DNA of 64,000 bases from a virus. Below, in pieces: positions 1 through 64,000 of this stretch; position 1 is the first letter of the stretch; every line of letters starts with the position of its first letter. The stretch is taken from IMG/VR virus record IMGVR_UViG_3300040801_001133, positions 1 to 64,000 of that record; one strand, written 5' to 3'. The position numbers and the translations under genes were made by a program. A model generated the notes under the pieces. The model had not been told where the DNA came from. It did no database searches and worked only from the letters and a program-made list of their open reading frames with translations.

Positions 1-2
1 AA

Positions 3-278
3 GATAAATCTTCTGACTTCTTAGATGTAGAAATTGATAAACTAATTGAATCTGGAAAATCTTCAGAAATTCTTCATTATCTTTCAAGAGATACTTCATT
101 AGTTAGTACTGAAGCTTTAGTTAAAGAGGCACTTCAAAAGAGTGTTCTTAAAAAGAGCGGACACAAAATTTTATATCATGATTCAGTTTTAGGTTCTGAA
201 ATTGAGGATGTAGCACAATATTTTATGCTGCCCGAAAATCAAGATTTAAAAATCAGAATTATGGAATCTATAAAGTAG
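3..278 (+). CDS. 3' end of an unknown virion-module gene, truncated by the window edge
   Basis: Open frame from nt 3 to TAG at 276-278 (...HKILYHDSVLGSEIEDVAQYF...IMESIK*). It ends 4 nt before the next ATG. No recognisable motif. Confidence 0.45.
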   Translation, partial: DKSSDFLDVEIDKLIESGKSSEILHYLSRDTSLVSTEALVKEALQKSVLKKSGHKILYHDSVLGSEIEDVAQYFMLPENQDLKIRIMESIK

Positions 279-282
279 AATT

Positions 283-984
283 ATGACTATAAGAGATATG
301 GAGTACGACTTTAAACTAAAAATGAATAAAGTCGATAGTAATCAAAATGCCAGTTTTTCTATACCAGAAATAGACTGGATTTTGAATGAGGCTCAAGAAC
401 TTATAGTAAAAAGAATAGCAAAACCCAGAAGATATAATGGATTAGGTTTTGAGGTTACACAAAGAAGTACAGATGATATTAAATCTATAGTTATAAATAA
501 TTATAGTTTAAATATTAAAAATAGTATCATAACTTTACCTCATGATTACTGGTTCTTTATATCAGGTTATGTACAGGCAAGTAAAAAATCTTGTCAGAAT
601 AAAAAATTAAGATTAATCATACGTCAGCATGATGATATGTTTAATGAGAGTTCTTTTAATAAATCTTCTTTTGAATGGAGAGAAATTAATGGAACATTTT
701 CTAAAGATGGAATAAATCTCCATTTAGAAGATTTTGAAGTTAACAGGGCTTATGTGACTTATATTAAAAAACTATCTTACATTCACAATGCCCAAGACTT
801 TAGAGGGGGGTCTTATAGACTGCCTTCCGGTGAATTACTTACAGGTTCACAAGATTGTGAACTACCAGAGGGTATTCACAGAGAAATTGTAGACTTAGCT
901 GTTTTAATTGCATCAGGGCAAATTCAATCTCCTGGATTTCAATTTCATCAAGCTAAGGCGAATTTAAATGATTTAATAAATTAA
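283..984 (+). CDS. hypothetical virion-module protein
   Basis: 233-aa ORF with ATG at 283, tightly packed immediately upstream of the capsid-like gene. No motif recognised. Confidence 0.6.
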   Translation: MTIRDMEYDFKLKMNKVDSNQNASFSIPEIDWILNEAQELIVKRIAKPRRYNGLGFEVTQRSTDDIKSIVINNYSLNIKNSIITLPHDYWFFISGYVQASKKSCQNKKLRLIIRQHDDMFNESSFNKSSFEWREINGTFSKDGINLHLEDFEVNRAYVTYIKKLSYIHNAQDFRGGSYRLPSGELLTGSQDCELPEGIHREIVDLAVLIASGQIQSPGFQFHQAKANLNDLIN

Positions 985-990
985 GATATT

Positions 991-2229
991 ATGGATAGAA
1001 GTAATGCAGTATTTCAAGTATTAGTAGTAGACCCTTCTAAAGCTCCTATAGGGGCGGGAAGTGCGGTAGAAGACCTCACTGAAGGTCAAATTGGTATTTT
1101 TGATGCCAGCACTAATTTAGCTATTGATGGCACAGAACAAGTAAGAAATTTCTACATGGCTGTAGGAATAGATTCAGATGGAGATGGACAAGTAGATACC
1201 ATTGATAAATCTTGTGGTCAGCTTATTCAGGCCAGAAATATCACTGGCTATACTTTTAGACCCCACACAGCAGCTCAACCTATGGTTGTTGAGTTCACTG
1301 GTTACAAACCTAAGTGTGGAGCTGATTACGGTATTAGGCTAGAGTTTAGAAATCAACAGGTATACGATCACCAAGGATTTAATCAATTTTCTAAAAGCTA
1401 TGTAATTCATACTGAAGAATGTGCAGATTGTGGTGATGAGTGTGAACCAGCTAATGTAAACTTACTTACTCAGAATCTAATTAGAGAAATTAATTACGAT
1501 AATGATGATATGGTTACTGCTGTCGCAATTGCAACGGAAGCCTTAGTAGCAGCTACACAAGGTACCTCTCAAGATTATGCCGAGGGTGATGAAATTAGTG
1601 AAGATGATTTACAAGTTCTAGTGGACTTTAACGAAGCTCAGGAAGATGAAACAACTAAAGTATCTACTGGGATTAGACTAACAACTAAACCCATTGCTAC
1701 TAGAAGATTTGTTGATATTAACACACGTTATCAGAAACCCAGAGGAACTATTATTATCCCTTCTATGATTGCTGGTTTTGGTACCCAGGGTTCTTTTGAG
1801 ACCACTCAAGAAGCAGCTTTTGAAGAGGGTAATGGTTATGATCTAAGATACAGAGAATATTGTGCTGCTGGATACAATGGAAGAGGAGGAGAAGGCGTAT
1901 ATCGCACCTATGCCAATACTGGACTAGCCAGAGAAATTGATTATAGAGTTGACCAAAAGGCTAAGTATGATGTAATTAGTCTTTCATATAATCAACACTC
2001 AAGATCAGCTTGGTTAGAGTACAGTAATGCCCTAAGAACAGAGATTGGAATACCTACTTTTCAAGGAGTTTCAACTGCTGCAAAAGATGGTATCCTTCTG
2101 GTCCTGGACAGAATAGTAGATCAGGTAGGATTAGATTCTTTATCTGATGATGCAGCTAGTGCTAGTGACAACCCCGAATTAGTAGAAAAGACTGAGGATA
2201 AAACCGCAGACACTGACGGCATAGCATAA
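991..2229 (+). CDS. putative major capsid protein (assigned by position and size only)
   Basis: 412-aa ORF at the head of the structural block and visibly less AT-rich than its neighbours. Contains a DxDxDG loop (GIDSDGDGQVDTID) and an acidic Cys cluster (EECADCGDECEP). The fold was not verifiable by eye. Confidence 0.4.
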   Translation: MDRSNAVFQVLVVDPSKAPIGAGSAVEDLTEGQIGIFDASTNLAIDGTEQVRNFYMAVGIDSDGDGQVDTIDKSCGQLIQARNITGYTFRPHTAAQPMVVEFTGYKPKCGADYGIRLEFRNQQVYDHQGFNQFSKSYVIHTEECADCGDECEPANVNLLTQNLIREINYDNDDMVTAVAIATEALVAATQGTSQDYAEGDEISEDDLQVLVDFNEAQEDETTKVSTGIRLTTKPIATRRFVDINTRYQKPRGTIIIPSMIAGFGTQGSFETTQEAAFEEGNGYDLRYREYCAAGYNGRGGEGVYRTYANTGLAREIDYRVDQKAKYDVISLSYNQHSRSAWLEYSNALRTEIGIPTFQGVSTAAKDGILLVLDRIVDQVGLDSLSDDAASASDNPELVEKTEDKTADTDGIA

Positions 2230-2792
2230 TGAGTTATATAAATAGTTTATCACAATCCGGGAGTTCATACTCCCGGATTAACAATCTCTCCATAACTGAC
2301 ACTAGTTTATACTTTGAACTAAGGTCAGTTAATTCTGAGGCTATAAGTTCAGTATTTTTAAACACTGCAAGTAGAATAGCAGCAGGAGAAGATAGTATTG
2401 ATATAACTAACTATGTTAATTTAATTGGAGATAATCAAATAGCTACTGTGAGTATTTGCACTTTTCTTGGAGGATGTGCAAATACTCTTTTTTTCAATTG
2501 TTCTGATCTAACTAAGGAACTTTTATTTTTAGAAGTATATCTGGATAATAGCTATGAAGAATGTGGAGAATGTAGTTCAGACAGTTTTATAATTGTAGAT
2601 ATTTCATCTGAATATAACTTATTAACTAAAAGTGTAATATCTTATAACAAGAAAAAGAAATGTTTTGAATTAAGTGATTGCCTAAAGAATAAGGTAACTG
2701 CATTGCTTCTACTAGAAGAGCAACTTAAGTCAGCCTTTCATTTTGAGGCTATTGAAGTGTACAATCATTATAAATCTCTTTGTTGTGATTAA
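2229..2792 (+). CDS. hypothetical Cys-containing virion-module protein
   Basis: 187-aa ORF with a TAATG start overlap with the upstream gene. Contains an EECGEC motif. Confidence 0.55.
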   Translation: MSYINSLSQSGSSYSRINNLSITDTSLYFELRSVNSEAISSVFLNTASRIAAGEDSIDITNYVNLIGDNQIATVSICTFLGGCANTLFFNCSDLTKELLFLEVYLDNSYEECGECSSDSFIIVDISSEYNLLTKSVISYNKKKKCFELSDCLKNKVTALLLLEEQLKSAFHFEAIEVYNHYKSLCCD

Positions 2793-2976
2793 AGAAGATA
2801 AATCTAACTTTAAAAAATTCTCTTTAAACAAAGAGTATAAAATATTTTTTGGTGAAGAGTCATTTCAACTCTACGAAAAAATGATTTTGGAATGGTTAAA
2901 TAATAAGACCACAAATAAAAAAGATAAAATTAAGTTACAGAGCTTTAAAAAATCTCTTGACTATAAAAAATTGTAA
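2785..2976 (+). CDS. small Lys-rich hypothetical protein (start uncertain)
   Basis: The track ORF 2743-2976 begins at TTG inside the upstream gene. An in-frame GTG at 2785 overlaps the upstream stop (2790-2792). The ORF ends 1 nt before the ATG of the next gene. Confidence 0.3.
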   Translation: MIKEDKSNFKKFSLNKEYKIFFGEESFQLYEKMILEWLNNKTTNKKDKIKLQSFKKSLDYKKL

Positions 2977-2977
2977 T

Positions 2978-4285
2978 ATGTATAGATGGATTCAATGTAA
3001 ATTAAAAGAGCTAGAGTGTAAGCTAAATAAGCTCATTTCTTCTCAATCTATATCTTCTACAGTAGCCATAGAGGATGAAGGAAATCAAGTTGCAGATAAT
3101 GTAGAAAGAATTAATTTTGTTGGTCCAGGAGTTACAGTTACTGGGGGTAATGATAGAACTACAGTTACTATTTTAGAAGGAGTAGGAACAGGAACTAGTA
3201 ATATAGATTTAGATATAGACAGAGAATTATTAAGTTTTTTTATTACAGATGCTAATGGGAATGTACTTACACAAGTTCCGTCAGCTACTCCAAACGGATT
3301 AGCTGGAGCTTTTAGTTCTCCTGATAAATTTAAATTAGATGGTATTGAAAATAATGCCACGGCGGATCAGACTGGAATTGAAATAGTTCAACTTATTAAT
3401 AGTCAATTAGGTTCTACTATCTGGCAACAGGGTGGTTCTAGTAGTAGCGGAGGAAACTCTTTACCCGCACTAGGTTCCCAAAGTATAGAAGTATCTGGAC
3501 AAAATATTATTTCTGCTATTATCTCTACTGACTCAGGTAATACTTTAGAATCAAGAGTTACGGGTCTATATGTACCTCAAGGAACCTCTGGAAGTTCCTC
3601 CGATTTAGGTACTTTATCTGGCCCCTCTTCAGTTGAAATTACTAATACAGGAGGTTCAAATGCTACTGTAAATGCTGTGACAACCACTTCATCTGGTGTA
3701 GCGACTCCTCAAGATAAAATTGATATTACTGACAATACTAACGCTAGACACAATGCTGCTACGGGGTCGGGGGCGATTAGTATTACTAGTTCACAAGTGG
3801 TTAGCTTGTCTATCTCTCCAGACACAGATAACACCCTTCAGGAAAGAACCAATGGACTTTATGTACCCCCTGGTTCAGGGGGTGGAGGCTCTTCATTAGT
3901 AAGAATTACTGATTCAGGAAACTTGGGTTTGTTTTCTTATTCGGTAAGACGATATGGCAATAGTGCTATTTCTGTGACAAACCCTTCTAGTGGGGAATAT
4001 TTATTTGTAGTACCAGCTAATAGTGAAACTATTTGGTATAATCTTAAAGGAGATAGCAGCACAGTTAACGGAGTAGGAGAAATAATAATTAAAGTAGATA
4101 ACTCTGCCAATGGATTTGACTATGAATTTATAGTGTCGCTAGATGATGAGGGAGCAGAACAATTTCCCAACATGTTTTCAAGAGGACATATAATTAGTGA
4201 AACTAATATCAACAACATAACAACTATAACCATACCAAACATAGGAGGTAACTATCCTAATGGCTTCACATTAAAACTAAGATAA
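2978..4285 (+). CDS. tail fibre protein (N-terminal coiled coil, Ser/Gly/Thr-rich shaft with internal duplication)
   Basis: The track start 2957 is TTG; the first ATG is at 2978 (MYRWIQCKLKELE...). Internal repeat: NTLESRVTGLYVPQG versus NTLQERTNGLYVPPG. The C-terminal segment ITIPNIGGNYPNGFTLKLR is shared with the next gene. Confidence 0.6.
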   Translation: MYRWIQCKLKELECKLNKLISSQSISSTVAIEDEGNQVADNVERINFVGPGVTVTGGNDRTTVTILEGVGTGTSNIDLDIDRELLSFFITDANGNVLTQVPSATPNGLAGAFSSPDKFKLDGIENNATADQTGIEIVQLINSQLGSTIWQQGGSSSSGGNSLPALGSQSIEVSGQNIISAIISTDSGNTLESRVTGLYVPQGTSGSSSDLGTLSGPSSVEITNTGGSNATVNAVTTTSSGVATPQDKIDITDNTNARHNAATGSGAISITSSQVVSLSISPDTDNTLQERTNGLYVPPGSGGGGSSLVRITDSGNLGLFSYSVRRYGNSAISVTNPSSGEYLFVVPANSETIWYNLKGDSSTVNGVGEIIIKVDNSANGFDYEFIVSLDDEGAEQFPNMFSRGHIISETNINNITTITIPNIGGNYPNGFTLKLR

Positions 4286-52270: not shown

Positions 52271-53157
52271 TAGAAATAGTTAAGACCCATGCACTCTTCA
52301 TAGGTTAATTGATTATAGTATAGTTCTGATTTGCCTAGTCTAGATAAAAAGAATTTTATATCTTCTTCTAAAGAAGGTGTTTGTAATCTAAAAGACTTAA
52401 CTCTTTTATCTACAGATAGATCATTAATGCTTCGTTGCATTATCTCAAATTTATCTAATTGAATATCATCAAAATATCTTGTATACTCATCAATTAAAAG
52501 ATCATGAAGGGGCATTTGAATAAAATCTACATAAGCTTCAGTAGCTTGATATAAATAGCAATAAACCACCAACTGCCAATAATATTGGCTAGGTATTTTA
52601 TTCTTAGATTTGAATGATTTCCAATCTTTAGGAACCTTCACATCTCTAATACCAACTATATCAATTTTATTATGAAGAAAATCTGTTTCTACCTTATTAT
52701 ATCTTATATCACACTCACCAGTAACAAACCCCTTAGTTATTCTTTTTGTGTTCTTTTTATAGTTGGTTCCCTCCTTTCTATTTAATATTTTAATGGCACC
52801 TTCTTCAGATAAAATACCATTTTGTGTAGCTATATACCCAAAAAATCCTTCTGAAGTAGAGAAGTCTACATAACCAATATTATTCTCTAACCAAACTTCC
52901 TTCAAATAATTCTTAGTACCAGGGGGTAAATCGTCTATCAAAGCTAACTCCCTTTGCTCTAAAGCTTTTTTATATGCCTTAGCCACAGTAGTAATACCGT
53001 GGGTTTCACAATAAGTATCTAACTTATCCTTATTATAAGGACCTAATTTTTTATCCTTAATTTTTTCTTTTAGTATTCTTTCAGCTAGAATAACAGAATT
53101 GTTATCTATTTCTGGTCTATGAGTACATATCTTATATGCACTTGAAGCTCTAATCAT
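52270..53157 (-). CDS. YqaJ/lambda-Exo-like PD-(D/E)XK recombination exonuclease
   Basis: GECDIRY ... IVGIRDVKVPK (D ... D-x-K) followed by YYWQLVVYCYLY (QxxxY-type motif). Confidence 0.5.
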   Translation of the reverse strand: MIRASSAYKICTHRPEIDNNSVILAERILKEKIKDKKLGPYNKDKLDTYCETHGITTVAKAYKKALEQRELALIDDLPPGTKNYLKEVWLENNIGYVDFSTSEGFFGYIATQNGILSEEGAIKILNRKEGTNYKKNTKRITKGFVTGECDIRYNKVETDFLHNKIDIVGIRDVKVPKDWKSFKSKNKIPSQYYWQLVVYCYLYQATEAYVDFIQMPLHDLLIDEYTRYFDDIQLDKFEIMQRSINDLSVDKRVKSFRLQTPSLEEDIKFFLSRLGKSELYYNQLTYEECMGLNYF

Positions 53158-53673: not shown

Positions 53674-54948
53674 TCAGTAGTAGTCTTCCTCGTACTCATC
53701 ATCATAATCTTCTTCCTCGTACTCATCATCATAATCTTCTTCCTCGTACTCATCATCATCATCATAATCTTCTTCCTCGTCACTATAATGATCCTCGACC
53801 TTAAAATAAATTTTATCTCTGATTTGATCAAGACGAGTCATAATCTGGGCACGATTTAGTTCAGGAATACTTGGAATTTCTAGCTGATAATTGCTGTCAT
53901 CCTTGTTGTTTACTTCTCCTTTATAAGAGATGATATTGATGAAGTCATCTTCAAAACCATCCTCTATTTCAGGGTCAATAATCTTGCCATCCTCACCAAA
54001 TTCTACCACTTGTACAGGATAGTAAGCACAAGTCCTCATTTTACCATAATTATCCTGTGGAGGTACAGCAACAACATCAGCAGGATTTACAAGTACTTGA
54101 AGACTAGTATTGCCAAAATAATTACGAGAAAGCCTATCTAGACCAGCTACGTGAAGACCACGAGAGCAAGTACGGTTCTGATTAGGGTCACACTTGCTTC
54201 TGTCTACAGTTACAGGCTGTCCCAGACGAATTGTAAAGGTCTTACTGTAAGAATCAGTATACACAGTAGAATTATCTCCTGCTAAGCTCTCATAAAGCTC
54301 CTGTAGTGTACTCCCTTTACCATTATACTTAACAACTTTAAGATTACCATCTACATCTTTTTCCACCGAGTAATTACGGGGGGATTTCTTGTTCTTAAAT
54401 TTAATTCGAGCATACTCAGAACTAATAAACTTGGCTTCCTCAGCATTTGTATCACTGCCTTCAGTTTTTACTAGTACGTTACGATAAGCTACAAACAATC
54501 CAGAAGAAGAGATAGTCATTCCATACTTATTCAAGAACCAGAATAAATTGGTTCTTACTCTGCTATCTGGATTGAGAGAAACTAGGGTCCAAAAGTTAAA
54601 ATAAGATTGCAATAATTCCTGATCATTTTCCGCTTCAGCAGCAGCAATAGAAAAAGCTAAATCTGAGGGAACCGTTAGTTCACAGATGCTTGGAATATAA
54701 ATACTATTACCTTTCCTTACAAGAACAGAAGAATTGTCTAAACTATCAGATTTATCTTTAAAAGCTTCTACTTGCTTTTCTTTTTTATATAGTTCAGGAG
54801 CAATAATTCTTTTAATTGCTTCTTCATCTCCTTGATTCTCAATAACTTGATTATACATTTGGTCAGTACAACTGGTAGTTGTAAGAACCTCTCCATCTTT
54901 AGTTGTGACTATCAGATGGCTCTTTAATCGAATGATCTTCATTTTCAA
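53674..54948 (-). CDS. rIIB-like protein with a hyperacidic repetitive C-terminal tail
   Basis: RTCSRGLHVAG...VNPADVVAVPPQDNYGKMRTCAYYPV resembles the rIIB C-terminal signature as I recall it (CSRGLHV ... HPRDVVSIP ... KMRTC). It sits directly downstream of the rIIA-like GHKL gene. The tail is DEEEDYDDDDEYEEEDYDDEYEEEDYDDEYEEDYY. Confidence 0.5.
   Translation of the reverse strand: MKMKIIRLKSHLIVTTKDGEVLTTTSCTDQMYNQVIENQGDEEAIKRIIAPELYKKEKQVEAFKDKSDSLDNSSVLVRKGNSIYIPSICELTVPSDLAFSIAAAEAENDQELLQSYFNFWTLVSLNPDSRVRTNLFWFLNKYGMTISSSGLFVAYRNVLVKTEGSDTNAEEAKFISSEYARIKFKNKKSPRNYSVEKDVDGNLKVVKYNGKGSTLQELYESLAGDNSTVYTDSYSKTFTIRLGQPVTVDRSKCDPNQNRTCSRGLHVAGLDRLSRNYFGNTSLQVLVNPADVVAVPPQDNYGKMRTCAYYPVQVVEFGEDGKIIDPEIEDGFEDDFINIISYKGEVNNKDDSNYQLEIPSIPELNRAQIMTRLDQIRDKIYFKVEDHYSDEEEDYDDDDEYEEEDYDDEYEEEDYDDEYEEDYY
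53685..53783 (-). repeat. 27-nt coding tandem repeat (about 3.5 copies)
   Basis: Plus-strand unit cttcttcctcgtactcatcatcataat has two exact copies, one copy with a 6-nt expansion, and partial copies at both ends. It encodes the EEDYDDEY repeats of the rIIB-like tail. Confidence 0.85.
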
Positions 54949-57313
54949 TAGGTTTGATATTAAATACAGTTTCTTTTCTTAATTTCTGTACTGCTTCTAA
55001 ATTTGGCTTAAATAGTTTTTTAGTTAATACATAATCAGTGACAAGATTAAGGGTTTCTTCTTTGATAATATTTCTACTATACTCTCTAGTAGAAAAATGT
55101 ATTAATAAAGAAGCATTTTTAAGTTCCTCTTTATTAGAGTCGAATAAAGACTTAATTTTTAAATTAAAATATCCATTTTCTTTAGATAAATCATATATAT
55201 CCTGATACAGTTCTCTATTTTTCTCAGTTAAATAACCTTTTATATATTTATTACGAAAAATATTTAAAGTATTTATGGTATAACTGAGATTTTTAGAAAT
55301 CTTTTCTAGGTTGTCTAGATCATATAAACTTTGCAAGTATGGGACTTCTATTTCCAACATATAAGCAGTAGCTATGTTTCTTATATAGGCATATTTAGTA
55401 CTCATAAAATCTTCAATATTTACTAGATTAGGAATATTCTTTAGTAATTTAACTTTAGACTTGGCTATTTCAATAACATTTGGTCTTAACTTAGACTCAG
55501 ATTTCTGTGTAATAGAGAACAAAGACTTTAGTTTTTCATTTTTAGGTTCCCCATAAACTACTAAAGACTTATATCTCTTATGTAATTCATTTAATTTTAC
55601 ATAATGTTTATTCTTACCTGGAGCATCATTAGGGTCTTGAGTCCTTTCATTTATTCTTAGCTTATAAACTAAAACAGTTTGATCCCAAAAATCCTTGCTT
55701 TTCTTATTCTTAAGTCTTTTATCTTTTTGGGCTTGCTTGTAGTCATCAATATAAGATTGAGGTACAGATTTATTAGTTATTATTTCACACTTAGATACTT
55801 TTTCAAGAAAATAATTAAATACTACTCTAACTGTTTTTAAATCTAAATCTTTGTATTTAGTTTTTTTAACAGAGTTATAATAATAACTATCATAGTTTGA
55901 ATTAAGAAGTCTTTTATAAATAGACTTTATAGGATAAGGAGAAAAGAAAATTGTACCTGAAGACATTGTATCTCTAATCCAAGATTTAGTAATATTGGAT
56001 AAAGAAGACATTTTACATATCTTATAATGACCAGGGGAGTTTCTAATATTTACAACAGATAATATACTATCTGTACTTCTAATACTATTAGATTTAAGCT
56101 CATATGTGACTCCGTGAAATCTAGGTAAAGTATTTCTATAAGAAGTAAAGATACCATATACTCTTTTTAACAAAGTAATATCATAGACTTTTCCTTTAAG
56201 GCTTATATTAGAATTAGATTCATCATATATTAATATAACATTGTCTTTATATTCCCCCTCCAATAATATTAGAGTCTTTCTATTCTCAACTGCTTTTAGA
56301 TAATCCCTTAGATCATCATAATCCTTATTTTCTTGGATTTTAATTAGATTATCTATTTCTTCTTGTACCTTATCTAACTTATCTTCAATTGTTTTGATTG
56401 AAGCAGCAGTATATAATAGTTCCTCTCTATTAGGAACTACTCCTATATCACCAATATCAAAATGTACAGCTAAAGATGAAGTATTAAAATAAGAAGGATA
56501 AGCTTTAGTTAGATTATCAAGCCTCAATAAGTAGGGTACTTTACCTAATAAAATTCTAGTGCCTACTGTATAGGAATTAGAAGTGCTACTGTGGGTACTA
56601 GGTAATATATTACTACTTCTCTTTACTAAGTTACTTACACTAAAAGTATTAAACCTCTTAATCTTAGCATTATTAAACACTTGTGCATATTTATTATTCT
56701 CTATGTCACACACTAAATAGATATTATCAAAATAAGTAAGTTGACTTTTAATGGCACTCCAGTAATCTCTTAATTTTGTATCCTCAAAAGGTATTTTTAC
56801 CTCTACACCATTTCTTTCCTCAGTAGGTATTTTACTTATTAAATCAATAGAAATACTATTACCATCCTTATACATTATGTATACATATTTATTACCCTCA
56901 TATACTGAAGTTATATGTACTGTATCAGAACAAGATAATGCAGAGAATCTTCCTAATCCAAAACCACCTATTTGTCCATTAGTCCCTCTCTTAGTAGAAG
57001 AACCAATATTTCTGTATATATTATTAAATCTCTCTTCACTTAGTCCTACACCAAAATCCTGTATCCTACAGAAATGCTGTCCATCACTAGATTTACCTAG
57101 CTCAACAATAACAGGATCATTAACACCAGCCTCCACATGGGAATCCCAGGCATTACTGACTGTCTCTCTTAAGAAAGATTCTATTGGTTTAGAGTATAGA
57201 TTAGTAGATAAAATAGTAACAATAAAGTCTATATTAGAATTATCAATGGATACTCCATTTGATTTTATGTCACCCTGAATTAAAACTTCTGATTCTCGTT
57301 TTCCAAATACCAT
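54899..57313 (-). CDS. rIIA-like protein with an N-terminal GHKL (Hsp90/MutL/GyrB-type) ATPase domain
   Basis: N box LYSKPIESFLRETVSNAWDSH (compare Hsp90 LYSNKEIFLRELISNASDA). G1 is QDFGVGLS and G2 is GGFGLGRFSA. The 804-aa size and the downstream rIIB-like partner fit the rIIA/rIIB gene pair. Confidence 0.6.
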   Translation of the reverse strand: MVFGKRESEVLIQGDIKSNGVSIDNSNIDFIVTILSTNLYSKPIESFLRETVSNAWDSHVEAGVNDPVIVELGKSSDGQHFCRIQDFGVGLSEERFNNIYRNIGSSTKRGTNGQIGGFGLGRFSALSCSDTVHITSVYEGNKYVYIMYKDGNSISIDLISKIPTEERNGVEVKIPFEDTKLRDYWSAIKSQLTYFDNIYLVCDIENNKYAQVFNNAKIKRFNTFSVSNLVKRSSNILPSTHSSTSNSYTVGTRILLGKVPYLLRLDNLTKAYPSYFNTSSLAVHFDIGDIGVVPNREELLYTAASIKTIEDKLDKVQEEIDNLIKIQENKDYDDLRDYLKAVENRKTLILLEGEYKDNVILIYDESNSNISLKGKVYDITLLKRVYGIFTSYRNTLPRFHGVTYELKSNSIRSTDSILSVVNIRNSPGHYKICKMSSLSNITKSWIRDTMSSGTIFFSPYPIKSIYKRLLNSNYDSYYYNSVKKTKYKDLDLKTVRVVFNYFLEKVSKCEIITNKSVPQSYIDDYKQAQKDKRLKNKKSKDFWDQTVLVYKLRINERTQDPNDAPGKNKHYVKLNELHKRYKSLVVYGEPKNEKLKSLFSITQKSESKLRPNVIEIAKSKVKLLKNIPNLVNIEDFMSTKYAYIRNIATAYMLEIEVPYLQSLYDLDNLEKISKNLSYTINTLNIFRNKYIKGYLTEKNRELYQDIYDLSKENGYFNLKIKSLFDSNKEELKNASLLIHFSTREYSRNIIKEETLNLVTDYVLTKKLFKPNLEAVQKLRKETVFNIKPIENEDHSIKEPSDSHN

Positions 57314-58014
57314 TACCAGTTTATTTTAGTTTGTCCTCTTTTTTCTAAAAGACGGTTAGTTAAGTAAAAGTGATCACATCCTATAAACTCGTGTTCACTA
57401 TGTTTATAATATTCCACCATTGGATGTGGTGCTGTCATTATATAATTAGTGTCAGGAGATATAGGTATATTCTCTATATTTATTCTACCATAAAATGTGG
57501 CATCCTCTCTGTTATGAATATATCTTGCTACAGACGTAGCTCTTGCCCCCCATAACATCCAAATACATGGATTTTTTTTGGATATGAGTTGAATTACCTT
57601 TTTAGTAAAATCTCTCCAGTAAAATTTATGAGAATCTGCGTTACCTGTTTCTACTGTAAGAGAAGTATTAAGTAAAAATACACCTTGATCAGGCCAAGTT
57701 CTTATATTCTTCTCATTAATATCAAGAGAGGAACTTAATTCCTTATATATTATTTGTAAACTTTTAGGAATATAGTCAGTACCATTAATAAAGGCATAAC
57801 CACAAGCATTATTACCAGTTGGGTAAGGGTCCTGACTTAGTATAACTACTTTAATCTTCTCTAAAGGCATAGAAAAAGCCCGAAAAATATTGTGTCTTTC
57901 GGGCTTGTAGCTAGTATTAGGAAGAATTTTTTCTGATAGTTCCTTTAATTTTTCTTCATATAAAATAGGACGTAATTCGTCCCAACTTCTATGTATTTTA
58001 TCTTTAGGATTCAT
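57313..58014 (-). CDS. uracil-DNA glycosylase superfamily protein
   Basis: KVVILSQDPYPTGNNACGYAF (UNG motif GQDPYH...A.G..F) and C-terminal TAPHPMV (compare HPSPLS). Confidence 0.65.
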   Translation of the reverse strand: MNPKDKIHRSWDELRPILYEEKLKELSEKILPNTSYKPERHNIFRAFSMPLEKIKVVILSQDPYPTGNNACGYAFINGTDYIPKSLQIIYKELSSSLDINEKNIRTWPDQGVFLLNTSLTVETGNADSHKFYWRDFTKKVIQLISKKNPCIWMLWGARATSVARYIHNREDATFYGRINIENIPISPDTNYIMTAPHPMVEYYKHSEHEFIGCDHFYLTNRLLEKRGQTKINW

Positions 58015-59041
58015 ATATAAGTTTACTTTGATAAAGAAATTTTCTTAGTTCTAGTCTCCCTTTTTCTTTAAAAAGATCAGAGGGGTCAGTAATATTTTGT
58101 CCTATATTAGGAATATAGAGAGGAGAAGAATTATTAGTATATTTATTAATAATACTGGATATTTTCCTAGATGCTTCCACTCCTGCTCTGTCATTATCGT
58201 AAAATACAATTACCTTTTTAAATCTCTGAGTCAGAGAAGTAAGAGTATTTATTGAAGGCACACAACCTTCATTTTGAAACCATACAGAATTTAATCCTTG
58301 GTTTCTCAGGACTCTACAATCCTTATAAGATTTACTTATTATTAATTGACGACCAAAAGGAACTAGCTTATTTAGTTCTCCTATGTCATTGCTCTTACAG
58401 TTAGTAATGAATCTATATCTCCCATTTCTATTATGAGGACAATAGATTTTCTTTCTATTATGTCTAAAGCTGCAAAAAGAGTATGCGAGTTCATAGAACT
58501 TAATTCTTCTAATACCTCCATTCTTTGTAATATTAACAGAAGAAGTGGCAAATACCTGGTCTTCAATGAGATGTTGTCTATATATACCATAAGATAACCA
58601 ATAATTCTTATCATTTATGGTAAAATCCCTAGTTCTTATATCCAGATTGGTACCGGTATTCTTTTTAATTCTGCTAGGATTAATTTTATTGGGTGTAGTT
58701 ATTATTTTTTTATCATCTACTATGTGATCTTTTATAAATCTTAATACATTCTGAAATCCATCAATGCCAAATTTATCTTCTATAGCATTAAAGCAGTCGT
58801 AATGGGTTCTTAATGGGTCTCCAAAATCTATAAATTGGAGTTTGCCATCAGGACTATAATTAAAATAGGCCCCAGGGGTTTTATCAGGTCTAAAAGGTGA
58901 GGTGATATACTCAAACGCAATTGGCTCAAAACCAAATACAAATTTGAATATATCCTCCTCACTTACTAAACTTAAAATGTATTCTTTAGATAAATACTCC
59001 CCGGAAATAAATTGATTTTCATCTACATCTTTAAAATCCAT
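58004..59041 (-). CDS. DNA primase (Toprim domain)
   Basis: KKVIVFYDNDRAGVEASRK is a Toprim DxD acidic motif preceded by a conserved-Glu-type region (WFQNEG). It lies in the replication module. Confidence 0.55.
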   Translation of the reverse strand: MDFKDVDENQFISGEYLSKEYILSLVSEEDIFKFVFGFEPIAFEYITSPFRPDKTPGAYFNYSPDGKLQFIDFGDPLRTHYDCFNAIEDKFGIDGFQNVLRFIKDHIVDDKKIITTPNKINPSRIKKNTGTNLDIRTRDFTINDKNYWLSYGIYRQHLIEDQVFATSSVNITKNGGIRRIKFYELAYSFCSFRHNRKKIYCPHNRNGRYRFITNCKSNDIGELNKLVPFGRQLIISKSYKDCRVLRNQGLNSVWFQNEGCVPSINTLTSLTQRFKKVIVFYDNDRAGVEASRKISSIINKYTNNSSPLYIPNIGQNITDPSDLFKEKGRLELRKFLYQSKLIYES

Positions 59042-59863: not shown

Positions 59864-60184
59864 TTATACTGGGTTAGAGAAAACACTTTCAATTTCATTG
59901 TTTTCTTCTTCCGTTTCCTCCTCAGTATCATTAGTTGAAAAGGCATCAACCTGCTCTTCAGTAAGTAGCTCTACTGTTTCTTCGGTACTGTCTACATCAT
60001 CCTCAAAAACAAAAGATACTGTTTCCTTCTTTACTGCTCTCTTATACTTTAAGGTAGGATGAGAAAATAACTCTTTCATCTCACGTCCTGTCAATCCTAG
60101 TTCTTTCTTGATTTCGGGACGTGTCATTCCACGATCTTGGATCATGCTTAAAACATCACTAGCTTTAATAATTCGCTTTTCCAT
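59864..60184 (-). CDS. small HTH-like protein with an acidic C-terminal tail
   Basis: RGMTRPEIKKELGLTGREMKELF looks like a helix-turn-helix. The C-terminus is TNDTEEETEEENNEIESVF. Confidence 0.4.
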   Translation of the reverse strand: MEKRIIKASDVLSMIQDRGMTRPEIKKELGLTGREMKELFSHPTLKYKRAVKKETVSFVFEDDVDSTEETVELLTEEQVDAFSTNDTEEETEEENNEIESVFSNPV

Positions 60185-60210
60185 AATAGTATAAATAATT
60201 AGGTTAAATT

Positions 60211-60639
60211 CTAAGAGTAATATTCGTCTGCCTTCTGAATTACATATCCTAAATCATTGGGGATCAGTAATTCATCAAACATACCAATAGGAGACTTAGC
60301 AGGAATTTCATTACCTGCATTATCTGAGTACTTGTTTGTTACAAAATTATATGTGGCTTTCTTATCTTTGGAACTATACTGCACATGAGTATACAGAACC
60401 ACAGTAAATAACCCTTCTAAGGTTACTTTACTATCTAACATAGAACCAATGGTCTTCATCTTATAGGCCCCAGACTTTTCATCTAAATCACTATGAGTAA
60501 GACAAATAAAGTTGATGTCTTTTCTCATGTTTTTGCCAAATGATATTACGTCATATGCTTCTTTTGCCAAATGATTGAACTTATCATACCCCTTCTTCAG
60601 AGCATTTGACATGAAATGTTCTGCAAGTATATATTGATA
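60211..60639 (-). CDS. P-loop ATPase (Sak4/AAA_24-like), exon 2
   Basis: The frame is open from the splice acceptor. The track 'M' at 60642-60640 is TTG, interpreted here as the last 3 nt of the intron (omega-G at 60640). Exon 2 starts TAT CAA TAT (YQYILAEHF...). Confidence 0.6.
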   Translation of the reverse strand, partial: YQYILAEHFMSNALKKGYDKFNHLAKEAYDVISFGKNMRKDINFICLTHSDLDEKSGAYKMKTIGSMLDSKVTLEGLFTVVLYTHVQYSSKDKKATYNFVTNKYSDNAGNEIPAKSPIGMFDELLIPNDLGYVIQKADEYYS

Positions 60640-61504
60640 CAAATTGTTATCGTAAAGGCTCTTTATCCTTTACTTCTATGTTTTAAATTTCCATACATAA
60701 CCATAAGCAGATTTTTTGTTTCCTTTACAGCAAGTAGATATGTTCTTTTTCATATCTATGTTACCTAAAAATCTGGCAGCATCACTAGCAGAATCCCAGT
60801 CCCGAATAAAGACTTTATTTCTGTCAAACTGGGAGATAGGTTTTTTATTAGCATTTGCTGAATTAATGACCCACTCCTTATGTCTAGGTTTGCTGTTGGC
60901 AATACTAATACGTTTTTTGGCTTCTTCTGTATGCTTATAGCCTGAAGAGCCTTTACAAGAAGTAGGACCCTGCCCACCTTCCGACAGATTAGTCAAACGG
61001 AATCCCCAAATTCTAAATTGAGCAATCCAGAATTTTTCGGTTTCTTGCCAAAACTCATCTTCTACTCCTTCTAATAATTCTATTTTAGGTCTTAGACCTT
61101 TATTAAGTATTGTTAGAAGCCAGTTACTTTTATAGTTAGTCTGTTTTTGTTGCTTATGTATGGAACAATGTTGATACCATCTATCTTTTAATGTTCTTTT
61201 TGTTTTACCTATATATCTAATTTCATTAGATGTAGGGTCTGCAAGTGTGTATATTTTTACCATGCACAAAGATAACAAAATAAGATGATTATCAAAATCT
61301 AAATCGTAATATTTACATAGTTCAGACTATATCATCAGTATTTCTACTGTTCCGCGCTCGTGGGTTTTACTGTCTTTAACTTAATAATAAGACTCCATAA
61401 CCTAGTCGTTGAACCTTCAATGTATTTCTACAAAGCTTGGCTGCTGATTGTCCCTACGGAGGAGTTTCCAGCAATTCACGGAATTTAACGACGACTATCT
61501 TTTA
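60640..61504 (-). mobile_element. group I intron (865 nt) carrying a GIY-YIG homing endonuclease ORF in its 3' peripheral region
   Basis: P1: exon GACGAU (61510-61505) pairs with intron GUCGUC (61495-61490), with a terminal U-G wobble. P10: intron GAUA (61499-61496) pairs with exon 2 UAUC. R element is GTTCAACGACTAG (61402-61415) and S element is GATGATATAGTCTGA (61322-61337), giving P7 GACUA/UAGUC. A terminal hairpin GTAAAGG/CCTTTAC is followed by ...AATTTG with a 3'-terminal G. Splicing restores the frame. Confidence 0.75.
60676..61263 (-). CDS. GIY-YIG homing endonuclease (intron-encoded)
   Basis: MVKIYTLADPTSNEIRYIGKTKRTLKDRWYQH contains GIY, YIG and the conserved Arg. Also NLSEGG. The C-terminal part has NUMOD-like segments (GYKHTEEAKKRIS; KKSAYGYVWKF). 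ATG is at 61263; the track start is TTG. Confidence 0.8.
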   Translation of the reverse strand: MVKIYTLADPTSNEIRYIGKTKRTLKDRWYQHCSIHKQQKQTNYKSNWLLTILNKGLRPKIELLEGVEDEFWQETEKFWIAQFRIWGFRLTNLSEGGQGPTSCKGSSGYKHTEEAKKRISIANSKPRHKEWVINSANANKKPISQFDRNKVFIRDWDSASDAARFLGNIDMKKNISTCCKGNKKSAYGYVWKFKT

Positions 61505-61786
61505 ATCGTCAATTACCACATTCTTAATATCAGGTCTATTATCATTAATATGTTGCAGTATACTAACAATAGTTGGACCATCTGAAACTGAAGCATAGTT
61601 ACCTCCTTCAGAGAGTAAAGTGCCATAATTGGTACGAGAGCCCTTAAAGGGTAGTGGTTTATCCATTACATTAAGAATGGCCGTCTCTTTAGGATCAAGA
61701 CCAATAATATCTAATTCTTTAACTTGGCCTAAAGAAGTGGATTTACCACTTCCAGTAGAGCCAATAACACAATAGGTAGTTGCCAT
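61505..61786 (-). CDS. P-loop ATPase (Sak4/AAA_24-like), exon 1
   Basis: Walker A VIGSTGSGKST and Walker B NVVIDD. The ORF stops at a TAA that lies immediately inside the intron, as is typical of phage group I introns. Confidence 0.65.
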
Positions 61787-61788
61787 AT

Positions 61789-62346
61789 TTATTTCTTTTT
61801 GCTATATTTAACTCCTTCTACAATAATATATTCAATAGTACGAGGGTCAACCTGTTTAGGTCTTCCTCCATCTTCCATATCATAGAACTCTAGTCGTCCC
61901 AGATCATTCATTTTTCCTTCATGACGACCTTTCATAATGCGAAAATCACCAGGAATATATTCTGTGATAGGGTTCTTAATTAAATCTTCAATGAGCAGAC
62001 TCACTTCTAATAGACTTGCATCAGCAAACTCCAAAGATTTATCAGCAATTTCCTTATTTAATGCTGCTTTAGTTTTCTTCTTATCTTTTTTATAGAATCC
62101 TACAGTCATTGCTACTCTAGGAGAATTTATTAATTTCTTAGCTAAAGTGGTTACATTAACATTAGTAATTTCACTATCAAAATAATCTGCTGAAGACAGA
62201 ATATCTTCCACATACTGTTTACCAATAGTGATCTTATTACCTAAAGAATCAACTAGATTTGCTTCATTGTTACTAATACTCTCTACTGTATAGAAAGATA
62301 ATTCTGAAAGAATAGAACCCTTCTTTAGTGAATTAAATTTACTCAT
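61789..62346 (-). CDS. hypothetical protein
   Basis: 185-aa ORF with a 1-nt start/stop junction with the vWA gene. Confidence 0.5.
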   Translation of the reverse strand: MSKFNSLKKGSILSELSFYTVESISNNEANLVDSLGNKITIGKQYVEDILSSADYFDSEITNVNVTTLAKKLINSPRVAMTVGFYKKDKKKTKAALNKEIADKSLEFADASLLEVSLLIEDLIKNPITEYIPGDFRIMKGRHEGKMNDLGRLEFYDMEDGGRPKQVDPRTIEYIIVEGVKYSKKK

Positions 62347-63134
62347 TATTTAGTTATATTTTTGTAAAATCCTCTTGATACATCTTTTCCTAAAGAAACT
62401 TTAGTGCTGTAGTCAGCCCTAGATTTAAAGGTAACATTTAATACTTCTGCTAAACCCTTACCTGTATTATCATAAGACTTCATATTGCTTAGGTCAACAC
62501 CCAGTTTTTCGCTTATTGATAGGCAGTCAATTTCTGTACCTATAAAAGTTACAGTAAACTGACCTTTTCTTCTTTCTATTTCTTTTTTAATGTAGGAACG
62601 TCTGTACTTTTTTGAATAATTTTCATTCCTATCAGTGTAAATATTAATAAGAACTTTTTCATTTAATTTGACAAAGGAGTCTAACTTTTTAAAAGTGATT
62701 CCTATTGCATCATAAAGAGCTGTCATATCCAGAGGATAGAAATTAATTCTTTCTTCAATCTCTTCGGGGTCTTTATTAAGTACATTAAACTTAGCTTTAG
62801 AGCTAAAGGAACAACATGTGTATTTATAAAATACATCTTTACCCTGTTCTTCAATTAATTTATCAATTCCTTCATTAATACCAATGACAGCATTCTGTAT
62901 TTTACTACCACTCATAGAACCACTACAGTCAACAATATCAACTATATGTACTACTGGTAGTTTTTTAGGTTTTCTTTTCTGTTTAGGTGCTTTATATTCT
63001 TGACCTAGTTCTAGATGCTGTTTCATAGACTCGTAAGAATTAAACCCGTAGTCCTTAGCTACTTTTTCTCTCCTTACTTTATTAGCCTTTTTGATAGACT
63101 TGAGTAATTGTTCTGGATTATCTATCTGTTTCAT
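62346..63134 (-). CDS. von Willebrand factor A (vWA) domain protein
   Basis: VVHIVDIVDCSGSMSG is a MIDAS DxSGS motif at the end of a hydrophobic strand, with a later IYTDRNEN (Thr/Asp MIDAS-type positions). Confidence 0.65.
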   Translation of the reverse strand: MKQIDNPEQLLKSIKKANKVRREKVAKDYGFNSYESMKQHLELGQEYKAPKQKRKPKKLPVVHIVDIVDCSGSMSGSKIQNAVIGINEGIDKLIEEQGKDVFYKYTCCSFSSKAKFNVLNKDPEEIEERINFYPLDMTALYDAIGITFKKLDSFVKLNEKVLINIYTDRNENYSKKYRRSYIKKEIERRKGQFTVTFIGTEIDCLSISEKLGVDLSNMKSYDNTGKGLAEVLNVTFKSRADYSTKVSLGKDVSRGFYKNITK

Positions 63135-63394
63135 TATTTACTTTTAAATTGTGAAAAATCCTTTAAAGCTCCGTTCATATTAACTCTAAAGTGTTGAGGA
63201 AACTCACAGTGACGAGATTCTACTAAATGAAGAGTTCTCATAAATGGATATATTTCAGACCCATTACTATCTTTTATTTTAAGACCAAAATGGTTTAATA
63301 ATCTATATCTTTCATCATTTGGATTAAGCATAGTGAGAACATAATCTGCATCTTCGGCTAAGTTCAGTTTTGTTATCGTAATTGTTCTTTTAAT
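63134..63394 (-). CDS. C-terminal exon of a DnaB/RecA-superfamily replicative helicase
   Basis: AEDADYVLTMLNPNDE resembles DnaB EQDADVVMFLYRDDYY. LHLVESRHCEFPQHFRVNMNGALKDF resembles the ..KNRNGPTG...L.F.....F tail. The track 'M' is TTG directly after an in-frame TAA, so the exact splice acceptor is inferred. Confidence 0.5.
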   Translation of the reverse strand: MKRTITITKLNLAEDADYVLTMLNPNDERYRLLNHFGLKIKDSNGSEIYPFMRTLHLVESRHCEFPQHFRVNMNGALKDFSQFKSK

Positions 63395-64000
63395 CAATTA
63401 CATCTACATATTTCTATGTAGCTCAGACTATATCATCATCTCAAATTTGAGATGGTGGGCGCTCGTGTTCCTATTATATTCTACTATTAGTAGTTTCAAG
63501 GATTAGTCGTTGCACCTTCTTTAATTTTTTAAATTAAAGCTTGGCTCAGGGTTACCATATCTTTCGACTTAGGCTTTCTCTGAGTTCACCCACTTTTCTT
63601 ATAATATCACTACTATAAGGGGCTTATTATAATTTGGCTAGTTAAACCTTTCATCTTTTTAGTTAATATTCCTTTTCTGTACTGGGACATATCCCATTTT
63701 GATAAGTTATAGTTTCTTTTAAAAGATTCTAAAGACCTATAAATAATAGTTTGATAACCATTAAATATTTTTACTCTAGTATGATTTGACTGTTTTGCCA
63801 TATCATAGTTAAGAGGAAAGACTTTATATCTTTTTTTACTAAAAAAATAATTTTTTATAGGATTAATTTTCATACCATAATTATCAAACCTACTCATTTG
63901 ATTTGATATTCTAGATTTAGAAATTCCTAGTTCTTTACTAGCAAAAGCAACAGATTTATACTCTTTGTGTAATTTACCAAATAAATTATAACAATACAGT
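63395..64000 (-). mobile_element. group I intron (3' portion; 5' end beyond the window) with an upstream endonuclease ORF
   Basis: The same core as the 60640-61504 intron is present: R element GGTGCAACGACTAATCC (63503-63516), CACGAGCGC, S element GATGATATAGTCTGA (63423-63437), P9 hairpin CTACATA-GAAA-TATGTAG, then ...GTAATTG ending in G before the exon. Confidence 0.65.
63613..64000 (-). CDS. intron-encoded homing-endonuclease-like ORF, C-terminal DNA-binding part (5' truncated by the window)
   Basis: The frame of track ORF 63613-63897 stays open upstream to the window edge (LYCYNLFGKLHKEYKSVAFASKELGISKSRISNQ-MSRFDNYG...). YKSVAFASKELGISKSRIS is a NUMOD1/IENR-like HTH. The catalytic domain is not in the window. 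Confidence 0.45.
   Translation of the reverse strand, partial: LYCYNLFGKLHKEYKSVAFASKELGISKSRISNQMSRFDNYGMKINPIKNYFFSKKRYKVFPLNYDMAKQSNHTRVKIFNGYQTIIYRSLESFKRNYNLSKWDMSQYRKGILTKKMKGLTSQIIISPL

Follow-up and report, generated by a model that had tools for sequence, protein, structure and literature searches.

The locus analyzed here raises the question of whether two open reading frames (ORFs) that lie 865 nucleotides (nt) apart, with a GIY-YIG endonuclease gene between them, are independent genes or parts of a single ATPase gene interrupted by a mobile element. The ORFs are located in the 64,000-nt stretch of viral DNA that comprises positions 1 to 64,000 of the IMG/VR record IMGVR_UViG_3300040801_001133 (hereinafter, the window); all coordinates are those of the window, and the ATPase gene, the intervening segment and all of its parts are on the minus (-) strand. 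The evidence described below makes us highly confident that the segment 61504..60640 is a phage-type, putatively IA-like, mobile group I intron, inserted in the gene for a Sak4-like ATPase (AAA_24/core-RecA type) in the replication module of a crAss-like phage. This is a well-formed, genuine intron, yet an ordinary case of a well-known kind of mobile element.

The ATPase gene and its uninterrupted homologs

Exon 1 (61505..61786) encodes 94 amino acids (aa) of the Sak4-like ATPase, including the Walker A motif GSTGSGKST and the Walker B motif VVIDD. It belongs to an ORF that extends from 61786 to 61502; the exon ends with the codons AAT GTG GTA ATT GAC GAT (...GTAATTGACGAT), its last base being T61505, and TAA follows straight after. 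Exon 2 (60211..60639) encodes 142 aa and the stop codon, and starts with UAUC, so that its first residue is Y95 of the joined protein. When 61505 is joined to 60639, the frame is kept through ...NVVIDD-YQYILAEHF... and the product is a protein of 236 aa; the predicted junction of the ligated exons is ...ATTGACGAT|TATCAATAT... The insertion point lies directly after the Walker B aspartates of the ATPase; invariant sites of this kind are favored by homing elements.

The joined protein matches the profile phrog_2872 (“Sak4-like ssDNA annealing protein”) over residues 1–235 (profile positions 1–211 of 219; E 4.8e-52). A search of 5.8 billion proteins detected 2242 homologs of this ATPase, the best 48 of which are 234–239 aa in length and align with 100% coverage and 55–78% identity; many of the best homologs are single ORFs on contigs of 90–100 kb. 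More than 100 uninterrupted homologs (235–238 aa, identity up to 78%) span 100% of the joined protein, none of them gapped at VVIDD|YQY, and D93, D94, Q96 and Y97 are nearly invariant in the alignment. The same is seen at the DNA level, where 18 of 18 intron-less IMG/VR loci are contiguous at DD|xQY. The closest proteins of cultured phages are crAss-like, those of crAss001 and its relatives (39% identity).

An earlier, sequence-only reading of this locus had proposed that the two ORFs are halves of one ATPase, with both Walker motifs in the first half and an in-frame junction between 61505 and 60639. Both motifs and the junction can be read directly from the sequence, and alignment of the spliced protein to intron-less homologs leaves no gap at the junction, so that the outcome expected of separate genes was not seen. 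The distinction matters for annotation: gene callers report two unrelated “hypothetical” ORFs and an endonuclease (as among the called genes in L001), whereas the true product is a Sak4-like ATPase of 236 aa.

Ribozyme core, guide pairings and splice sites

Read directly on the minus strand (60100..61900), the 865-nt intron starts with TAA at 61504, an in-frame stop in the unspliced RNA, and ends with ...CAATTTG at 60640, where G60640 is the terminal guanosine of the intron (omega-G). Rfam identifies a group I intron (RF00028, Intron_gpI) at 61538..61306 (-) with 70.7 bits, where the gathering score is 50 (E 6.5e-16), and the full model, 1–253, is covered; this match and that of the joined protein to phrog_2872 lie well outside what chance would give. 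The R and S elements agree with the Rfam consensus. The 5' part of the Rfam alignment, corresponding to P1/P2, is misplaced: many of its “P1” pairs are non-canonical, and it begins 33 nt before the real 5' splice site. It was discarded on both grounds; hence the limits of the Rfam match are not the limits of the intron. The 3' module and the endonuclease ORF fall outside the Rfam model.

The core consists of the following parts. The 5' strand of P3, UUCCGUG (61477..61483), forms 7 base pairs (bp), 5 of them compensatory, with the 3' strand CGCGGAA (61350..61356), which is likewise identified by covariation. The P4-P5 domain, UGCUGG ... UCCU-CCGUA-GGGA ... UCAGCA (61442..61473), is recovered by thermodynamic folding, RNAalifold and covariation, and P6/P6a (61413..61441), which includes the 27-mer CCAAGCTTTGTAGAAATACATTGAAGG, by RNAalifold and covariation. 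The R element (61402..61414; GTTCAACGACTAG in DNA, GUUCAACGACUAG in RNA) holds the 5' strand of P7, GACUA (61407..61403), and the S element (61325..61336; GATGATATAGTC in DNA, GAUGAUAUAGUC in RNA) holds its 3' strand, UAGUC (61329..61325); this P7 helix (GACTA paired with TAGTC in DNA) is invariant in all six introns compared below. The P8 hairpin, CAGUA-GAAA-UACUG (61336..61349), has compensatory changes in 3 of its 5 pairs. An extended hairpin (61363..61402; helix 8, with 3 of 4 pairs compensatory) is located between P7 and the 3' strand of P3. Insertion of P7.1/P7.2 is a trait of subgroup IA, and this 40-nt hairpin with its covarying stem occupies the P7.1/P7.2 position and may correspond to P7.1 plus P7.2; the intron would tentatively be placed in IA2/IA.

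Thermodynamic folding of the 5' part as a single sequence yields P1, P3, P4/P5, the long hairpin between P7 and P3' and P8; single-sequence folding by itself would not convince. More telling is the comparison with homologous introns, which were found through homologs of the endonuclease (43–57% identity). The crAss-like contigs that carry them share one layout, namely, exon 1 (~92–104 aa), a non-coding RNA of ~185–260 nt, the GIY-YIG ORF, a short tail and exon 2 (~136–142 aa), and in all of them the ATPase locus lies between the DnaB and primase genes. The window intron was analyzed together with five independent, well-diverged introns at the same site (L094, L097, L098, L100 and L101). For these six, RNAalifold predicts P1, P3, P4, P5, P6, P6a, the P7.1-like hairpin and P8, with 22 of 47 pairs compensatory. 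When P7 is added as a pseudoknot, pairing extends to 96.3% of the cells, with changes on both sides in 22 of 45 pairs. None of 500 shuffles equals the observed pairing and compensation, and sliding the 3' partners by 1–3 columns reduces pairing to 30–44% and the number of compensatory pairs to 1–5. Such compensatory changes across diverged phages indicate that the RNA itself is under selection.

The splice sites follow from the internal guide sequence (61490..61499). Its 3' part, GUCGUC (61495..61490; GTCGTC in DNA), which is preceded by 9 nt of intron sequence, forms P1 with the last six bases of exon 1, GACGAU (61505..61510), where U61505 makes a U.G wobble at the 5' splice site. The adjacent GAUA (61499..61496) is complementary to the first four bases of exon 2, UAUC (60639..60636), in P10. 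P1 is perfect, with the terminal U.G, in 6 of 6 introns and includes a compensatory change from C-G to U-A (exon GAC with guide GUCGUC, exon GAU with GUCAUC). P10 is a perfect 4-bp helix in four of the six, each time with a different sequence (GAUA/UAUC, GGAA/UUCC, GUCU/GGAC and GCCU/GGGC) that tracks the first codon of exon 2. The last base of exon 1 is T in all six intron-plus alleles, whereas intron-less alleles have T or C, and the last two bases of the intron are UG in all six. A P9.0 helix that would join J7/9 to the two bases preceding omega-G fits, by eye, only about four of seven related introns and is not claimed.

The strongest test of the splice sites comes from intron-less alleles of the homologous introns. 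When L094 and L101 are spliced in silico at the predicted sites, each resulting protein is identical over its whole length to a contiguous ORF of public assemblies (exact matches P0182, on 76 contigs, the longest of 98.7 kb, and P0196, on 5 contigs). Furthermore, the intron-less locus L121 is 99.2% identical to L094 on both sides, with neighboring genes alike, and the two differ by an 886-nt indel that coincides, with a 1-nt ambiguity, with the predicted L094 intron (2736..3621) and takes in the RNA core as well as the ORF. Because this indel is precise, the homologous intron is a discrete unit, bounded as P1 and P10 predict and polymorphic within a species, and such presence/absence polymorphism is the pattern expected of a homing element. 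The polymorphism thereby gives indirect support to homing, and the exact agreement of intron-less alleles with the spliced products gives indirect support to splicing.

Thus, the propositions of the sequence-only reading on the RNA hold up: the 865 nt contain a group I intron, as seen from the Rfam match above the gathering score and from core helices recovered both by RNAalifold on six introns and by covariation; the R and S elements and P7 are where it had put them (R at 61414..61402, S at 61336..61325); the splice sites deduced from P1/P10 pairing are borne out by covariation of both helices and by the ends of the L094/L121 indel; and the terminal G is indeed G60640.

A separate observation concerns the frequency of the two alleles. 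In the two species for which both are available (clusters P0182–P0210), the exon-fragment ORFs that mark the intron-plus allele are found on more contigs than the contiguous ORF; for example, a 142-aa fragment is present on 207 contigs and the 235-aa ORF on 76. The intron appears to be common but not fixed in those two phage species.

Endonuclease, 3' module and competing explanations

The GIY-YIG gene (60676..61263; 195 aa, ATG at 61263, stop codon TAG at 60678..60676) was correctly recognized from the letters alone. Residues 4–83 of its product match the Pfam GIY-YIG domain (PF01541; 26.5 bits, cut-off 22.6) and residues 16–194 match phrog_314 (“homing endonuclease”; E 1.5e-11). In an alignment with homologs, Y5, Y17, R28, H32, E76 and N92 are invariant in 25 sequences; these residues correspond to the GIY-YIG catalytic set known from I-TevI. 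A profile made from the alignment finds the catalytic domain of I-TevI (1LN0, E 0.009); the homolog profile is needed to reach I-TevI, as a single-sequence search of PDB returned only chance matches to antibodies. The gene looks intact and functional, and its product would act as a homing endonuclease, the activity, the target and the mode and timing of expression being predicted by comparison.

Upstream of this gene, a promoter-like sequence of the Bacteroidetes -33/-7 type, TTTG-N18-TATCTTTG (61267..61296), has its last base 3 nt 5' of the ATG. The strict pattern TTTG-N17-21-TAnnTTTG occurs twice in the window versus 2.57 occurrences expected by chance, i.e., is not enriched, and the match in the intron is not significant alone; TAnnTTTG is present upstream of the endonuclease ORF also in L094, L097 and L101. 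We retain this box only as a tentative part of the intron.

As had been noticed from the sequence, the ORF lies downstream of the core, in the P9 region, and is separated from the 3' splice site by a tail of exactly 36 nt. This tail contains a P9.1-like terminal hairpin of 7 bp, GUAAAGG-AUAAAGAG-CCUUUAC (60673..60652), followed by the single strand GAUAACAAUUUG (60640..60651) that ends in omega-G. Over four loci, the stem of the hairpin covaries (100% paired, 5 of 7 pairs compensatory), and its loop, AUAAAGAG, and the subsequent GAUAAC are conserved. The same order, with GAUAA(C/U)A after a 7-bp hairpin and a final UG slightly further on, terminates 9 of 9 related introns examined, including two introns in DnaB genes (in the window and in L095) and an intron with a LAGLIDADG gene (L106, at the Walker B site), all discussed below. 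The tail is, then, no accident. In L098 and L101, the endonuclease ORF runs through the hairpin (...DKEP...) and stops within GAUAA; therefore, the ORF is placed between P9 and the terminal P9.1-like hairpin. A long-range helix between the segment just 5' of the ATG (UUGUUAUC) and the tail (GAUAACAA) was considered and rejected: by RNAduplex energies, it is no better than with shuffled tails in five of six loci, and for the window 248 of 300 shuffled tails are as good.

The mechanism that we propose would follow the established group I pathway. The ATPase gene would be transcribed as one pre-mRNA, in which the guide GAUA-GUCGUC would pair first with the end of exon 1, GACGAU, forming P1 with its U.G wobble. 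Exogenous guanosine bound at P7 would then attack after U61505, the guide would hold the first bases of exon 2, UAUC, in P10, G60640 would dock in the G site, and ligation of the exons would restore ...NVVIDD-YQYILAEHF... in the 236-aa ATPase. Given that the intron opens with an in-frame UAA, unspliced RNA would end translation at once and the 236-aa ATPase would come from spliced RNA only. By analogy with I-TevI, the endonuclease would cut intron-less ATPase alleles in mixed infections, and repair from the intron-plus copy would spread the intron (homing).

Several observations weigh against this interpretation. No P2 helix is evident in the window intron, the Rfam alignment of P1/P2 is wrong, and the folding energy of the core exceeds that of shuffled sequences only modestly (z = -1.77). 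P10 is imperfect in two of the six introns (L097 and L098). At the gathering threshold with default filters, RF00028 misses four of the six ATPase introns as well as the intron in the DnaB gene of L095 (the loci concerned are L094, L095, L097, L100 and L101). At the protein level, Pfam AAA_24 scores the joined ATPase at 25.9 bits, slightly below the cut-off of 27, and the C-terminal half of the endonuclease is only weakly NUMOD/I-HmuI-like (PF22083, E 0.0049; 16.9 bits where the cut-off is 27). Finally, the exact spliced protein of the window's phage is absent from a collection of 15 billion proteins, which contains no intron-less allele of this phage either; for the window's own phage, the conclusion rests on homology and on its own perfect P1 and P10, and we infer splicing from the sequence. 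With respect to the Rfam misses, the cores of the missed introns covary cleanly with that of the window intron. Because most members fall below the gathering threshold, routine Rfam annotation under-counts this intron family, and because four of the six homologous introns are missed, the family is somewhat atypical for the Rfam model.

Could the 3' end do more than complete the ribozyme? The endonuclease gene sits just upstream of the 3' module and, in some members of the family, is translated through it, and no RNA partner for the loop AUAAAGAG or for GAUAAC was identified in the related introns. The module, the promoter-like box and the endonuclease could together represent an undescribed regulatory design, in which transcription and translation of the endonuclease could be coupled to, or compete with, formation of the 3' splice site, or else splicing could require a protein that binds the module. 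We consider this unlikely.

A related alternative is that the intron is removed in vivo but is not autonomously self-splicing and requires a protein cofactor, such as an RNA chaperone of the host or the phage or a maturase-like activity. The missing P2 together with the 0.6-kb ORF placed between P9 and the terminal hairpin would be a possible reason for such a requirement, and the poor P1/P2 alignment, the low z of the core, the Rfam misses and the invariant loop and GAUAAC, as a potential protein-binding site, are all compatible with it. However, all core helices and the R and S elements are intact and covary, and phage group I introns with large looped-out ORFs, such as those of T4 td, nrdB and nrdD, self-splice in vitro. 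To our knowledge, GIY-YIG endonucleases are not maturases. Hence dependence on a cofactor is quite improbable, and the intron of the window probably splices without protein factors.

It is more doubtful still that the insertion is a decaying relic that no longer splices, leaving the ATPase as a pseudogene or as two expressed fragments. Such a relic would be compatible with the absence of the exact spliced protein from the collection and with the fact that splicing is read from sequence alone. Against it, neither exon has lost its open frame or its nearly invariant residues; the window copy has a perfect core, P1 and P10; the endonuclease retains its full length and every catalytic residue; and the arrangement is kept, with compensatory changes, in at least five diverged phages. 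In addition, the ATPase gene is one of those conserved in the replication block of crAss-like phages (PMC7886860). We therefore regard decay as very improbable. The last alternative, two truly separate genes with an incidental group I likeness in between, draws on the fact that phages commonly have free-standing GIY-YIG endonuclease genes located between other genes (PMC12350094), but is refuted by the single-ORF homologs of 235–238 aa that cover both halves and by the precise L121/L094 indel with its RNA core and ORF, is at odds with the Rfam match (E 6.5e-16) and with the covariation of P1 and P10 with exon sequence, and is hardly credible.

Related introns and comparison with known systems

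In the window, the ATPase gene follows a DnaB fragment (63134..63397) and precedes the primase gene (58004..59041). The order is the same in crAss001, where the gene for the replicative helicase is directly followed by that for the homolog, Gp84, and the primase gene lies further downstream. The giant ORFs of the window (4218, 1830 and 1554 aa) are typical of crAss-like phages. When the region was compared with 50,697 phage records by megablast, only a 36-nt chance match was obtained, and therefore no cultured phage is a close relative. Two adjacent ORFs at 53674..57313 (-), immediately downstream of the replication module, are rIIA-like (804 aa) and rIIB-like (424 aa) and match the respective PHROG families at E 3.9e-63 and 2.1e-25.

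A more permissive Rfam scan of the whole window returned, beyond the ATPase intron, one second intron and one sub-threshold match, to the eukaryotic small nucleolar RNA snoR60 (52465..52538 (-); 26 bits versus 40, E 0.45), which is almost certainly due to chance. The second group I intron (63365..63641 (-), running past 64000) splits the gene for a DnaB-like helicase and scores higher than the ATPase intron (113.2 bits, E 1.1e-28). From the common 3' module, here GUAAUUG-AUUAAAAGAA-CAAUUAC GAUAACAAAACUG, its omega-G was placed at 63365 and the start of DnaB exon 2 at 63364 (NLAEDADYVL...); this exon ends at 63134, and consequently the called start of the DnaB ORF, 63397, is intronic. In this intron, the GIY-YIG ORF lies upstream of the core, not downstream; the ORF, with its stop at 63613, overlaps the 5' part of the Rfam match and runs beyond the window end, and the encoded protein is 31% identical to the endonuclease of the ATPase intron. 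The 5' splice site is outside the window.

Other members of the family combine related RNA with other genes and sites. L094 and L095 have 99.5%-identical flanks, and the DnaB gene of L095 (~1300..2300) carries an insertion of 1001 nt that L094 lacks, at ...SILK|NRDGD, a site different from that of the window's DnaB intron. The insertion encodes a 254-aa GIY-YIG/NUMOD protein in an ORF that starts soon after the 5' junction and overlaps P3–P5 of a group I core, and it terminates with the hairpin and the GAUAACAAAACUG module; Rfam at the gathering threshold detects nothing in it. In L106 and L115, two IMG/VR contigs (70 and 91 kb), an intron on the reverse strand (~1..690) with the same guide as in the window, GUCGUC, and a closely related core occupies the Walker B site of a distant ATPase homolog (36.6% identity). 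Here a LAGLIDADG-type ORF is located upstream of the core, runs through the guide and stops in the UUUAAA after it, and the segment from P9 to the terminal hairpin contains no ORF; therefore, the same site and core are paired with a different endonuclease at a different position. In L102 (14.7 kb, ~2290..3117), a related GIY-YIG endonuclease (41% identity) is encoded in a group I intron elsewhere in an AAA_24 ATPase gene, whose first exon encodes 150 aa and whose second encodes 59 aa, with P1 GAGGGU/GCCCUC and the ORF before the S element, its stop TAA directly 5' of GATATAGTC. The 27-mer of P6/P6a is identical in 14 IMG/VR contigs (L106..L119) despite quite different guides and flanks, which points to what may be a widespread, recently spreading intron family in several host genes of these phages.

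Introns of this kind have been described before. Yutin et al. (2021, Nat Commun; PMC7886860) reported group I introns in core genes of crAss-like phages of the human-gut Delta and Zeta groups, among them ATP_43b, which belongs to the replication block and is described as the “AAA domain ATPase”. The introns were identified through endonuclease protein domains, and the RNA structure, splice sites and guide pairings were not described in that work. By the description in the paper and by synteny, ATP_43b is most likely the ATPase gene of the window; the name was not found in the supplements. The two cases are alike in the crAss-like assemblage (giant ORFs, crAss001-like best matches and the DnaB-ATPase-primase order), in the class of host gene, a small conserved ATPase of the replication block, and in the group I intron with an endonuclease ORF; they differ in that the window phage has no close relative at the DNA level in the phage collection.

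With respect to RF00028, the window intron covers the whole model, 1–253, at 70.7 bits versus 50, and deviates from it in the P1/P2 end that is off by 33 nt, in the 3' module and ORF that lie beyond the model, and in the failure of the model to detect four of the six close relatives.

Group I introns with GIY-YIG genes in phage genes for DNA metabolism are classical, the examples being T4 td/I-TevI and nrdD/I-TevII (PMC12350094). The window intron resembles these T4 introns (IA2; nrdD is also known as sunY) in its group I core, R and S elements and extra hairpin between P7 and P3', in the GIY-YIG gene that is looped out of the ribozyme and, as in nrdD, lies in the P9 region downstream of the core, in the interruption of a DNA-metabolism gene at a highly conserved catalytic motif, and in the endonuclease catalytic residues that align with those of I-TevI; an endonuclease promoter within the intron, as in T4, is possible. 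Unlike in T4, the window intron has no evident P2, its ORF is placed between P9 and the terminal hairpin and apparently not in a hairpin loop, the C-terminal domain of the endonuclease is weakly NUMOD/I-HmuI-like, and there is no detectable sequence relation between the host genes. The intron is thus textbook in kind, useful chiefly for annotation and as a clean illustrative case, and a like insertion in a conserved ATPase of the crAss replication block has already been reported (PMC7886860). The present analysis contributes evidence at the RNA level, i.e., guide pairings, covariation and exact intron-minus alleles, for crAss mobile introns that had previously been inferred mainly from endonuclease domains; this description adds detail, not a new kind of element, and changes no concept.

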